The notes under the pieces were generated by a model. That model was given only the letters and a program-made list of their open reading frames with translations, was not told the origin of the DNA and searched no databases. The translations under genes were made by a program, and so were the position numbers. Shown piece by piece: positions 12,547 to 35,289 of a stretch of 64,000 bases of DNA (position 1 is the stretch's first letter; the number at the start of each line of letters is the position of its first letter). This stretch comes from Natronospirales bacterium (GTDB taxonomy: Bacteria > Pseudomonadota > Gammaproteobacteria > Natronospirales > REEB76): NCBI GenBank assembly GCA_021792635.1, contig JAJYUH010000003.1, positions 101,795 through 165,794 on the forward strand. The letters are read 5' to 3'.

Positions 12547-12991
12547 ACGCAAACCGTCTGGTGAGTGCCGGCCGGATCAAACAGGGGTGGGGCGGGGTAT
12601 CAGTGTTCCCAGCAGGTGCTGGTGTTGAGGGCGCCGGCGGAATTGGTGGCGGTTCGATTGCCGGTGTTGTCGAGGCTGAAAGTGCGGCAGTCGGTATCAT
12701 TGAGCTGGGTCCCCACCGCCGTGACGGTCAGGGTGTAGATGTCGGTGGTGACAGCCGGGGGCTCGGTCAGGGTGTAGTACCCGAACTGGGTGCTGGCGGG
12801 CAGGGAGGCGGCGGAGGGCGAGCACTGGGCGCTGTTATAGCGGAAGTACTGGGTGTAGCAGCGTTCCAGGATCTGGGAATCCTGACTGAGGAGGGTTTCC
12901 GCGTCGGAGCGGTGGGATTTCAGCACCGAACGTTCATAGGAGGGGTAGGCGATGGCGGCGATGATGCCGATGATGGCCACCACGATCATGA
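12547..12991. repeat. 445-bp perfect direct repeat, copy 1 (pilE-1 body plus 53 nt of 3' flank)
   Basis: Base-for-base identical, by my reading, to 20042-20486 (offset 7,495 bp). Confidence 0.85.
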
Positions 12992-13046
12992 GCTCGATCA
13001 AAGAGAACCCCGAAACAGGCCGTCCGTTGGCCCCCGAACCCGTCAT
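12600..13046 (-). CDS. pilE: Type IV pilin, PilE-like, cassette 1
   Basis: Class III signal MTGSGANGRPVSG|FSLIELMIVVAIIGIIAAIAYPSY and a C-terminal Cys pair (DTDC...STCW). ATGA overlap with the upstream small ORF. Confidence 0.85.
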   Translation of the reverse strand: MTGSGANGRPVSGFSLIELMIVVAIIGIIAAIAYPSYERSVLKSHRSDAETLLSQDSQILERCYTQYFRYNSAQCSPSAASLPASTQFGYYTLTEPPAVTTDIYTLTVTAVGTQLNDTDCRTFSLDNTGNRTATNSAGALNTSTCWEH

Positions 13047-13384
13047 GGGTGCCCCCGCGGTTGAGGGGGAAGAGCCGGCAGCACGATAATTTTGGTAATT
13101 ACCGAGGAGGCTCTGTTCAGCGGGCCGTTCATGATGTATCTCACCCGCATGCCCGTTTGCAGGTTTTCAAAGCTCTTGGCACCCGTGACGAATACCTTGG
13201 GCGACAGGGGGTAGGTATGGCCGTTCACGGCGAGGGTGCGCGCGGCATAATTGATCATACCGATGGTGCCGGTACCCATGCGGTTTTCCGGGATGGCATA
13301 AGCCGCCAGCGTCGCCTGTTCCGGCAGCAGAACCATGAGCAGACCCGCCGCCGCAAACGTAACGAATGTGCGCAACTTCAACAT
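13043..13384 (-). CDS. Small secreted protein at the pilY2 position, paralog 1
   Basis: 113 aa with signal peptide MLKLRTFVTFAAAGLLMVLLPEQATLAA. Paralogs lie at 20714-21046 and 27754-28170, sharing G-T-[IV]..[ND]Y...[TI].[AT]V.G[HQ].Y...[SA]PK...GM.[VI]R[YF]. No family recognised. Confidence 0.7.
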   Translation of the reverse strand: MLKLRTFVTFAAAGLLMVLLPEQATLAAYAIPENRMGTGTIGMINYAARTLAVNGHTYPLSPKVFVTGAKSFENLQTGMRVRYIMNGPLNRASSVITKIIVLPALPPQPRGHP

Positions 13385-13402
13385 GTCCTGATCCTCCTGT
13401 TC

Positions 13403-34173: not shown

Positions 34174-34175
34174 GG

Positions 34176-34727
34176 TCAGAGCGCCGAACTGACACTCAGG
34201 CTGAAACTCGTACCCGCAGGTGCGGCAGTGGGGCTCAGGCCGTTCTGGGCGCGGCTGTCGTTCCATTGTACGGTGATGGTCACCATGCTGAGGCCGCCGG
34301 ATACTGCGGTAGTGATGGCGCCGCGCCCATTGGGAAGGCGTGTTGCCAAATCGTATTCCCATTGGCCTATATCATAGGTTGCCAGCGCGGATGAACTGCA
34401 ACTGGCGCCTGTACATGTGGTCGGATCCGTGGTGGCCGCTCCGGCGGGCATGGTGATGTCATAGCTGCCGTTGGTGGCTGCCGGCAGATTGGCGCGCATG
34501 CGATCAATAATGTTGTACGCCAGGGCCGTAGCCTGGGTGCGCATGTAGGCGCTGTCGTTGCTCTTGAGGGTAGTACTGATCATGGCGGCGATGCCCAGCA
34601 GTCCCACCGACAGAACCACCAGCGCGATCAATACCTCCAGCAGGCTGAACCCGCACAGCAGCCGCGGGTGGTCACCGGATACCTTGACTCCATTTGCCCC
34701 ATCCATGAACATCAACTCCCCATGCAT
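34176..34727 (-). CDS. pilV: PilV minor pilin, cassette 3
   Basis: 183 aa; ...PRLLCG|FSLLEVLIALVVLSVGLLGIAAM. Which of three nearby Met codons is the start is uncertain. Confidence 0.8.
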   Translation of the reverse strand: MHGELMFMDGANGVKVSGDHPRLLCGFSLLEVLIALVVLSVGLLGIAAMISTTLKSNDSAYMRTQATALAYNIIDRMRANLPAATNGSYDITMPAGAATTDPTTCTGASCSSSALATYDIGQWEYDLATRLPNGRGAITTAVSGGLSMVTITVQWNDSRAQNGLSPTAAPAGTSFSLSVSSAL

Positions 34728-34764
34728 GACTCGGCTTGTTGAATCCGTTATTTTCCGGGATAAC

Positions 34765-35289
34765 CTAGGGACAGGTGAGCGTGGTGGTGCCGTCCACCTG
34801 GTAACCTACCTTGCTGGCCGCCTCCGCCCGTCCGGTGAGAGCCAGGTCAATCGATCGGGCATAACTGGCGCCGCGGGCATCACACAGCGTGAAGGTGCTG
34901 GCGGTCCCGGTCATGCCGCTGGCGTTGAAGGTGAACGTGTTGCCGCCGCTGCTCGTTAAAGTGTTGCCGCTGTTCAGCGCCGGGAAAACGCGAATGACCA
35001 CCGTGCTGGCCCCCGGGGGCGGGCTGTTGTAATACACCATCCAGCCGGCAGTCCACGCGCTGCTGCAGGCCACATCGTTAGAGGTTGCGCAGATGGTCAC
35101 GGGAGTACCGCTCTTGATGGCCTCGCTGCGCGCCAGCATCAAACCGGTAAGCAGAGTGTTAATCTGGGAGATGTCACGGTCGTTCTTGATGGTGGCGCTG
35201 AAGTCGGGCACGGCGATCGTGGTCAGGATCGCCACCACTGCCAGCAGGACCAGCAACTCGATCAGGGTGAAGCCGTATGCCTTTTTCAT
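34765..35289 (-). CDS. fimU: FimU/FimT-like (GspH-domain) minor pilin, cassette 3
   Basis: 174 aa; MKKAYG|FTLIELLVLLAVVAILTTIAVP...ARSEAIKSGTPVTIC...WTAGWMVYY. Confidence 0.85.
   Translation of the reverse strand: MKKAYGFTLIELLVLLAVVAILTTIAVPDFSATIKNDRDISQINTLLTGLMLARSEAIKSGTPVTICATSNDVACSSAWTAGWMVYYNSPPPGASTVVIRVFPALNSGNTLTSSGGNTFTFNASGMTGTASTFTLCDARGASYARSIDLALTGRAEAASKVGYQVDGTTTLTCP

Follow-up and report, generated by a model that had tools for sequence, protein, structure and literature searches.

A head-to-tail array of three minor-pilin/PilY1 cassettes in a Natronospirales bacterium, probably encoding alternative tips of one type IVa pilus

Why would a bacterium keep three sets of minor-pilin and PilY1 genes side by side at a single site? 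The question is raised by a stretch of 64,000 nucleotides (nt) from the genome of an uncultured gammaproteobacterium of the Natronospirales (assembly GCA_021792635.1, contig JAJYUH010000003.1, positions 101,795 to 165,794 of the forward strand), which we call the 64-kb window and to whose positions all coordinates refer. On its minus strand, between 12600 and 35289, 20 uninterrupted open reading frames (ORFs) form three head-to-tail cassettes with the gene order fimU-pilV-pilW-pilX-pilY1-pilY2-pilE, in which pilY2 is a small ORF, and with no unrelated gene between them. We refer to the cassettes as c3, c2 and c1, numbered against the minus-strand reading direction; c1 and c3 carry the canonical complete gene set and c2 lacks fimU. 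This layout had been described in a first-pass annotation made from the sequence alone, and our ORF check, which found 0 internal stops, agrees with it on the repeated gene order, the gene positions, the 20 intact ORFs and the missing fimU of c2.

We interpret the locus as a tandem array of three transcription-competent modules that probably provide alternative priming/tip complexes for one type IVa pilus and share a homogenised PilE. Each module, with its minor pilins, its PilY1 adhesin and its small secreted PilY2-like protein, would make up the priming/tip complex of such a pilus, and the PilE adaptor, which gene conversion keeps almost uniform inside any one genome, would let every module fit the same filament. 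That the tips are alternatives on one machine is something we infer. The first-pass annotation had likewise proposed functional modules, and this is the best-supported reading, demonstrated in part.

Assembly and gene content of the array

Could the triplication be a product of assembly, with one or two cassettes duplicated or mis-joined by the assembler? An exact 445-nt repeat, described below, is a classic source of mis-joins, and one contig from a metagenome-assembled genome (MAG), L096, does follow a chimeric path through the pilE repeats. Against this, DNA-level differences of 15-50% among the cassettes mean that none is a copy of another, both junctions recur in independent assemblies, and contigs of 139-190 kb from relatives carry three cassettes at the same site. 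The independent short-read assemblies L084 and L090-L093 represent essentially the same organism: L084 (ENA ERZ27237319) covers the dehydrogenase gene that bounds the array together with c3 and c2 at 99.98% identity, and the L090-L093 contigs run from the tail of the c2 pilE through c1. Independent contigs end inside the 445-nt repeat, and the three breaks at the two c2 boundaries each share exactly 141 nt with it, which is the k-mer size of the assembler. An overlap of just this length means that the population truly contains the repeat, and the sole consistent path is c3-c2-c1-gshA. The three-cassette array is not an assembly artefact, an explanation to which we give almost no credence.

Contig L096 (GCA_027440755.1, DAIARR010000019.1; 7.3 kb) holds c2 followed by a c3-type pilE and the c3-c2 spacer in a circular-looking path, and c2 seemingly has the c3 pilE and spacer on both sides. 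The contig most likely reflects a mis-path of the de Bruijn graph through pilE 5' regions that are 98-99% identical; alternatively, it may be a population variant with a duplicated c2.

The array is bounded by a gene for an AidB-like acyl-CoA dehydrogenase on one side and by gshA on the other. Its flanks are chromosomal, with gshA, DsbA-like, quinone oxidoreductase and AidB-like dehydrogenase genes and then metX, xseA, guaB, guaA and purL. A foreign island was considered and rejected, since the GC content of 0.595-0.626 over the array compares with 0.58-0.65 in the rest of the window, and no mobile-element genes were found. An Rfam scan returned one tRNA-Ser only, outside the locus.

Pfam searches confirmed the gene families that the first-pass annotation had assigned. 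The class III prepilin signal with G-1 and E+5 (G followed by [FL][ST]L[IL]E) occurs in 11 ORFs, as previously counted, namely those for FimU, PilV, PilW and PilE, and the N_methyl family (PF07963) matches all 11. FimU, encoded in c1 and c3 only, combines GspH with N_methyl; PilV is Tt1218-like with N_methyl, PilW matches PF16074 and N_methyl, and PilE matches ComP_DUS and N_methyl. PilX has PilX_N and PilX matches and lacks E5 (glutamate at position 5). The PilX_N, PF16074 and GspH matches exceed the Pfam gathering scores in each cassette that has the gene, and all three PilY1 copies match PF05567 (E 1e-43 to 1e-45). The PilY2-like small ORFs are less clear: those of c1 and c2 give weak PilY2 matches under the cut-off (20 bits vs 25), and that of c3 has no Pfam match and is homologous to the other two by BLASTP. 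The features of the array are listed here in minus-strand reading order; L and S denote the long and short cassette types described in the next section, and protein lengths are in amino acids (aa).

35409..37025, plus strand: AidB-like acyl-CoA dehydrogenase gene, divergent, left-hand array boundary; same boundary in contigs L098, L100 and L103
34765..35289, minus strand: c3 fimU, L-type; leader MKKAYG followed by FTLIE
34176..34727, minus strand: c3 pilV, clustering with L-type PilV
33058..34173, minus strand: c3 pilW, 371 aa; start as in the gene calls of relatives, including L084
32461..33021, minus strand: c3 pilX; L-type C-terminus ending in MLQSVYRP
28203..32414, minus strand: c3 pilY1, long (L) type, 1403 aa; ~225-aa insertion in the putatively vWA-like N-terminal half
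28401-28427, within c3 pilY1: Dx[DN]xDG calcium motif; the protein has a plug-like C-terminus, GRASWWQIP
27754..28170, minus strand: c3 small secreted ORF, PilY2-like, L-type; kept in relatives' L-type cassettes, dN/dS 0.38-0.42
27306..27725, minus strand: c3 pilE; 78% identical to the c1 and c2 copies
26462..26992, minus strand: c2 pilV, S-type
25302..26459, minus strand: c2 pilW, S-type
24711..25289, minus strand: c2 pilX, S-type
21090..24626, minus strand: c2 pilY1, short (S) type, 1178 aa; calcium motif at 21291-21317, C-terminus QRQSWREIPN
20714..21046, minus strand: c2 PilY2-like small ORF; PF14481 at E 7e-4, under the cut-off
20095..20553, minus strand: c2 pilE with a GTG start, its placement based on the sequence and on the gene call in L084
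19317..19880, minus strand: c1 fimU, S-type; start at ATG 19853 or at the in-frame ATG 19880
18736..19314, minus strand: c1 pilV, L-type ancestry
17582..18733, minus strand: c1 pilW, L-type ancestry
16998..17567, minus strand: c1 pilX, S-type
13403..16939, minus strand: c1 pilY1, short (S) type, 1178 aa; calcium motif at 13625-13651
13043..13384, minus strand: c1 PilY2-like small ORF; PF14481 at E 5e-4, under the cut-off
12600..13046, minus strand: c1 pilE
20042..20486 (c2) and 12547..12991 (c1), minus strand: 445-nt tract, 100% identical between the two places, covering the mature pilE coding sequence and 53 nt downstream
10843..12435, minus strand: gshA, right-hand array boundary (TIGR01434, E 1e-169); same boundary in contigs L012, L094, L100 and L102

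Cassette types, the common PilE and the PilX-PilY1 interface

The paralogs had been estimated to differ at a quarter to a third of their residues, and the actual range is wider, with protein identities from 31% (PilY2) through 50% (PilW, c1-c2) up to 96% (PilE, c1-c2). The ratio of nonsynonymous to synonymous divergence (dN/dS) lies at 0.19-0.46 in all paralog pairs, and synonymous divergence (dS) is near saturation, at ~0.8-1.8, in every pair except pilE. Low dN/dS together with near-saturated dS indicates old copies under purifying selection, in line with the earlier statement that these are not decaying duplicates.

Neighbour-joining trees of the window and its relatives (200 bootstraps) separate two ancient cassette types that are 45-60% identical to each other and have been kept across at least 4 genomes. 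The L type, to which c3 belongs, lies on the dehydrogenase side and encodes a PilY1 of ~1400 aa whose N-terminal half has a conserved ~225-aa insertion, and the S type lies on the gshA side and encodes a PilY1 of ~1175 aa. PilX, PilY1 and PilY2 of both c1 and c2 group with the S type (200/200). The PilV and PilW of c2 do so as well, to the exclusion of c1 (199/200 and 200/200, respectively), and c2 PilW has orthologs of 58-66% identity in other MAGs. In c1, FimU groups with the S type (198/200) and PilW is the sister of c3 PilW (192/200). By these trees, c1 is a chimera of the form S-L-L-S-S-S for fimU-pilV-pilW-pilX-pilY1-pilY2, whose pilV-pilW part was acquired from an L-type donor.

Short contigs of closer species, L001-L003, carry orthologs of c1, and L001 opens with the pilE of an upstream cassette. 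Their PilW is 70-78% identical to that of c1 vs 44-45% to that of c2, and their PilY1 is 74-77% identical to that of c1. Since the mosaic of V/W versus X/Y1 is common to c1 and these contigs, the chimera predates those species. In this reading, an ancestral pair of L and S cassettes gave rise to an L cassette (c3), an S cassette minus fimU (c2) and a chimeric S cassette (c1), and the third cassette in the lineage of the window probably derived from the S type. The extra cassette of two relatives with three cassettes, JBAWFA010000001.1 and JBAVYM010000049.1, is L-type; because it differs in type from that of the window, the expansion to three probably occurred more than once, although the relationships are reticulate. 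The picture of three intact, diverged modules drawn at first needs revising on three counts: c2 is incomplete through the loss of fimU, c1 is chimeric and pilE is homogenised by gene conversion.

PilE departs from the two-type pattern, its copies clustering by genome and not by cassette type (183-200/200 bootstraps). In this comparison, identity is 78-92% within the window and 81-91% within relatives, and 49-73% between genomes. The dS of pilE between c1 and c3 is 0.31 vs ~1 in other genes, and the c1 and c2 copies show 4 differences in 411 nt of the mature region. These comparisons show concerted evolution of pilE by gene conversion, of which the 445-nt tract is the latest event. In P. aeruginosa, FimU and PilE have been proposed to connect the core PilVWXY1 to the major pilin PilA (PMC5979040). 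A homogenised PilE beside two conserved core types would be expected if one filament has to accept different tips.

The gene-conversion tract ends just past the GFSLIE codons of the c2 pilE (region 20486-20625). This gene has no ATG, and its ORF opens at GTG 20625 (VKRQD..., resembling the MKRQDG start of FimU). The start is likely GTG 20553, where the gene caller placed it in the relative L084, which gives an atypical 17-residue leader (VVFCLLPHKIVWPDACG followed by F).

The behaviour of PilE also bears on whether the cassettes belong to separate filament machines, one of them perhaps a second type IV pilus or a competence pilus. Such a division has a parallel in X. fastidiosa, where paralogous minor-pilin sets differ in their effects on twitching and competence (PMC9956873). 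However, all three cassettes here are of the same type IVa fimU-pilVWXY1E kind with PilY1, they have one promoter architecture in common (see below), and the homogenisation of pilE among the cassettes of each genome fits one common major pilin partner. We consider separate machines quite unlikely.

In PilY1, the first-pass annotation had placed the greatest divergence in the N-terminal half and described the C-terminal propeller motifs as kept, both of which we confirm: the ~225-aa insertion of c3 lies in the N-terminal half, and the C-terminal domain matches P. aeruginosa PilY1 (PDB 3HX6; E 2e-62 for c1), with the PF05567 match and the Dx[DN]xDG calcium motif in 3/3 copies. Neither Pfam nor a profile search of PDB sequences gave anything informative for the N-terminal half. 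An AlphaFold2 model of c3 PilY1 residues 1-890 reached a mean predicted local distance difference test score (pLDDT) of 70, with a core of 80-98, and its best Foldseek matches in the PDB were all von Willebrand factor A (vWA) domains (probability 0.9-0.99, E only 0.03-0.2), among them vWF A1, CMG2, TRAP, integrin I domains and Gram-positive pilus tip adhesins. Residues about 176-308, the L-type insertion, were modelled at a pLDDT of <50, and the sequence motifs of this insertion are conserved among L-type proteins.

Both partners of the presumed tip interface are type-specific at their C-termini. PilY1 ends in QRQSWREIPN in the S type and in G.R.SWWQI in the L type; PilX ends in LQTVVTQ and MLQSVY.., respectively, so that the plug-like motif of PilY1 co-varies with the PilX C-terminus. 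By the usual correspondence of PilH/I/J/K to FimU/PilV/PilW/PilX, we take the neisserial PilK to be the equivalent of PilX. The recombination breakpoints in c1 leave pilX-pilY1-pilY2 together. In Neisseria, PilC's C-terminal plug interacts with PilK (bioRxiv 10.64898/2026.09.18.752573), a pair with which that of the window may be compared. Types that differ in PilX, in the PilY1 plug and in PilY2 are to be expected if each PilY1 pairs with its own PilX, and from these sequence patterns we infer cognate PilX-PilY1 pairing by type.

Might the cassettes instead be redundant duplicates, kept for dosage or robustness or reflecting the instability of a tandem array, with no specialisation? Copy number is two or three among relatives, the third copy is probably independent in different lineages, the repeats clearly recombine, and the promoter architecture that the cassettes have in common argues for co-regulation and not for differential regulation. 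On the other hand, L and S have stayed distinct in at least 4 genomes at the identities given above, with type-specific PilY1 insertions, plugs and PilX ends; a dS near saturation with dN/dS of ~0.2-0.4 speaks of a persistence that pure redundancy rarely attains; and conversion would have homogenised the other genes as it did pilE. On balance this explanation is unlikely, though less so than that of separate machines.

Programmed variation, by phase variation or by cassette recombination, is a further possibility. The poly-G tracts of Neisseria pilC and the pilE/pilS genes are phase- and antigenic-variation systems, and the window shows gene conversion tracts, a chimeric cassette and a C8 homopolymer (coding strand; 31570-31577) that lies in the L-type insertion of c3 pilY1, encodes PPP and is a possible slipped-strand site. 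Yet there are no silent copies, all cassettes having starts and promoter-like elements; the length of the C8 tract, the only homopolymer of at least 7, is invariant in nine independent contigs; no recombinase, invertase or notable short tandem repeats were found in the window; and the chimera is old and common to other species. We regard programmed variation as very unlikely.

A broader proposal, which we put forward only tentatively and hold to be less probable than not, is that the array is an evolvable locus for tip shuffling, in which the base (PilV-PilW) and the head (PilX-PilY1-PilY2) have been recombined with breakpoints that spare the plug interface, PilE has been kept matched to the single major pilin by recurrent conversion and copy number has risen and fallen between two and three, with independent gains in different lineages. 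If true, tip shuffling would be an undescribed route to pilus adhesin diversity and natural evidence for a division of the tip complex into adaptor and core.

Promoter-like elements and candidate regulation

Is each cassette equipped to be transcribed on its own? Upstream of each we found a promoter-like element of one architecture, a 9-mer like CCGTTCATC, 12 nt, a 9-mer like ACGCTTATC, 30-32 nt, a TATAxT box, 6-7 nt and an ATG. In the window the elements are as follows.

35297..35364, minus strand: c3 element, CCACTCATC, 12 nt, ACGCCTGTC (35335-35364), 32 nt, TATAGT (35297-35302), 7 nt, ATG
27139..27206, minus strand: c2 element, CCGCCCATC, 12 nt, ACGCTTATC (27177-27206), 32 nt, TATTGT (27139-27144), 6 nt, ATG 27132
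19887..19954, minus strand: c1 element, CCATTCATC, 12 nt, GCACTTATC (19925-19954), 32 nt, TATATT (19887-19892), 6 nt, ATG 19880
27001..27132, minus strand: putative fimU remnant of c2, a 43-codon ORF from ATG 27132 (MKQADSF) and, in a different frame, traces of FimU's helix and C-terminus

The architecture recurs in 12 cassette upstream regions, 3 from the window and 9 from 5 other genomes, being recognised in 11/12 by a regular expression and in 12/12 by eye. With at most 1 mismatch, a pattern derived from the relatives only had no matches in 64 kb other than the c2 and c3 sites (0.17 expected), the c2 element with 0 mismatches; with at most 2 mismatches it matched all three sites among 8 matches vs 3.4 expected. 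The AlgR consensus is CCGTTCGTC, CCGTTCATC is its rhlI site, LytTR regulators bind direct repeats with 12-bp spacing, and AlgR activates fimU-pilVWXY1Y2E (PMC4064291). The element suggests that one LytTR-type, AlgR-like regulator drives every module from its own promoter. The -10-like box lies so close to the ATG that leaderless transcripts are possible. For the c3-c2 spacer, a sigma-54 promoter read by eye (TGGCACG...TTCG) was set aside over its ill-fitting -12 element.

The elements also inform the gene starts. Their position suggests that c1 fimU may start at ATG 19880, and ATGCAAA follows the TATATT box in the c1 orthologs L001 and L003. The element of c2 has been retained despite the deletion of fimU. 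The 43-codon ORF behind it may be a fimU remnant; its tblastn matches are weak (E 0.4-2, not significant individually), and the main argument for this suggestion is its position right after a conserved promoter.

Several observations weigh against three alternative tips, separately expressed, on one machine. In the 64-kb window we found neither core pilus genes nor an AlgR/FimS homolog. Cassette c2, without FimU and with a non-canonical pilE start and leader, may need the FimU of another cassette or be partly impaired. The c1 PilY1 ends in QRQSWRDISPSLATPGP (13403-13440), where the S-type relatives, L001-L003 included, end in SWREIPN; the extension SWRDISPSLATPGP, absent from the L001-L003 orthologs, takes the protein 8-9 residues past the plug-like motif and may matter. 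The vWA assignment is weak, leaning on the Foldseek E values and the pLDDT-70 model given above. For the c1 repeat site two mismatches must be allowed, and at that level matches arise by chance. Finally, no convincing intrinsic terminators were seen after any pilE by a consensus scan or by folding (z-scores +1.0, -0.3, +0.8), so that read-through co-transcription is possible and separate promoters are conjectural; in relatives, GC stems and then T-runs follow pilE.

In favour of alternative tip modules, as first proposed, stand the conservation of the types in at least 4 genomes, the promoter-like element before each cassette and the match with an explanation already in the literature for multiple copies of these genes (PMC8833165).

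Relatives, known systems and biological meaning

How widespread is the arrangement? Our survey of relatives rests on genome contigs and exact-protein look-ups, and the nearest genomes are all uncultured gammaproteobacterial MAGs. Two or three cassettes occupy the dehydrogenase-gshA site in four further contigs. Three contigs proved informative for the synteny comparison that the first-pass annotation had suggested (U stands for fimU, V, W and X for pilV, pilW and pilX, E for pilE, Y1-n for a PilY1 of n aa, and s or Y2 for a small PilY2-like ORF).

JBAWFA010000001.1, 3 cassettes: U V W X Y1-1404 s E; V W X Y1-1439 s; U V W X Y1-1181 Y2 E
JBAVYM010000049.1, 3 cassettes: U V W X Y1-1383 s E; V W X Y1-1432 s E; U' U V W X Y1-1176 s E
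ERZ25039501 contig_43207, 2 cassettes, at the same dehydrogenase-gshA site

In all three triplets, that of the window included, the middle cassette is without fimU. The presence of a triplet at the same site in related MAGs makes it a clade feature, not one unique to this genome. The first-pass annotation, which could not match the triplet to a described arrangement, had held that it would be of little interest if common and already annotated in close relatives; it does recur there with its genes already named by NCBI's automatic pipeline, which lowers its novelty by that measure, and we found no paper in the open-access literature that describes it or any other tandem array of minor-pilin operons. 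Exact look-ups of c1 PilY1, of the 385-aa version of c2 PilW and of GshA returned no identical protein. For PilW the reason is that gene callers used another start, and the 382-aa version (P0001) was matched.

In JBAVYM010000049.1 (contig L102; regions 8200-9449 and 18025-18483), the gshA-proximal cassette has two consecutive fimU-like genes, the first of them highly divergent (38-47% identity) and situated behind a 684-nt spacer with repeated sequence, and a gene for an IS200/IS605-type Y1 transposase lies just past gshA.

Farther afield, a second PilY1 cassette lies within 10 kb in 10/79 loci retrieved with c2 PilY1. The ten include loci of Steroidobacteraceae, Acidiferrobacterales, Wenzhouxiangellaceae and Marinobacter, and such tandem doublets are not rare in environmental Gammaproteobacteria. 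They differ from the window in having two copies and far more divergent partners, with PilY1 at ~28-38% identity to the query, and we found no published description of them.

A full fimU-pilV-pilW-pilX-pilY1-pilE cassette is also present on the 225-kb plasmid unnamed1 of Legionella sp. D16C41 (contig L010, NZ_CP183304.1, 169804-193331), with a PilY1 of 48-49% identity to the S type of the window, which hints that such cassettes can move horizontally.

Elsewhere in the window, a 114-120-aa ORF at 37101-37463 (plus strand) matches amidohydrolase PF01979; it is far below normal length, probably a gene fragment, and is kept in the near-identical contigs L080-L083. On the minus strand, 5397-6686 encodes a Ser/Thr protein kinase domain that carries a cyclic-nucleotide-binding (CRP-like) domain fused at the C-terminal end, and 50912-53136 a BlaR1-like Peptidase_M56 protein with a TonB_C domain that adjoins a BlaI/Penicillinase_R-type repressor. 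Also on the minus strand, 58164-60308 and 61598-63532 mark two further features, a CHASE3-HAMP-GAF-GGDEF diguanylate cyclase and a pair of adjacent DUF4382 paralogs; a role of the cyclase in surface behaviour is conceivable, and no link to the pilus locus was seen.

Among known systems, the fimU-pilVWXY1Y2E operon of P. aeruginosa resembles each cassette in gene families and order, in the PilY2-like ORF and in the terminal pilE, as well as in a PilY1 with a calcium-motif beta-propeller (3HX6) and a putatively vWA-like N-terminal half, and the repeats of the window resemble AlgR sites. P. aeruginosa has one copy of the operon, whereas the window has three in tandem, one of them without fimU, and it is further set apart by the strict 12-bp repeat spacing and the -10-like box that abuts the start codon. 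The pilY2 of P. aeruginosa is viewed as a probable pseudogene (PMC4064291), in contrast to the PilY2-like gene of the window, which is conserved and under purifying selection.

Three sets are also found in M. xanthus, where cluster_1, _2 and _3 are separate, have their own regulation and encode four minor pilins and a PilY1 each (PMC7541494, PMC8833165). As in the array here, a small periplasmic accessory protein is encoded within a set (TfcP in cluster_1), and the sets have been read as alternative priming/tip complexes for one type IVa pilus machine. No tandem arrangement has been reported for them; the sets of the window are contiguous and head-to-tail, have a common promoter architecture, include pilE and exchange sequence through gene conversion. 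X. fastidiosa, another gammaproteobacterium with duplicated minor-pilin/PilY1 operons, has two pilEVWX/fimT/pilY1 sets of diverged functions in two genome regions, with extra pilY1 and fimT copies (PMC9956873), and not a tandem array. The PilC1/PilC2 pair of Neisseria likewise consists of paralogous tip adhesins that vary in their N-terminal halves and are conserved in their C-terminal ones; there, however, the adhesin alone is duplicated beside one minor-pilin set, whereas in the window whole modules are, and no phase-variable tract is evident.

Minor-pilin/PilY1 genes have been described as 'often present in multiple copies', with tip complexes of different properties as the suggested result (PMC8833165). 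That multiple sets exist and can be read as alternative tips is already known from Myxococcus, Xylella and Neisseria. The novelty lies in organisation and evolution: one conserved chromosomal site with a head-to-tail array, 2-3 copies over a clade, a chimera, a homogenised adaptor pilin and a common promoter-like element ahead of each cassette. Short-read MAGs break at such arrays, and multi-cassette loci are probably under-counted. The promoter-like element offers a testable regulatory hypothesis. The chimera indicates PilV-PilW as the exchangeable part of a tip complex and PilX-PilY1-PilY2 as the part that moves as a unit, in keeping with the plug-PilK interaction. The core, comprising PilV and PilW together with PilX, PilY1 and PilY2, exists as two types beside a homogenised PilE, as predicted if the tips plug into one filament, and in this way the locus adds natural comparative evidence on why bacteria carry several minor-pilin/PilY1 sets.

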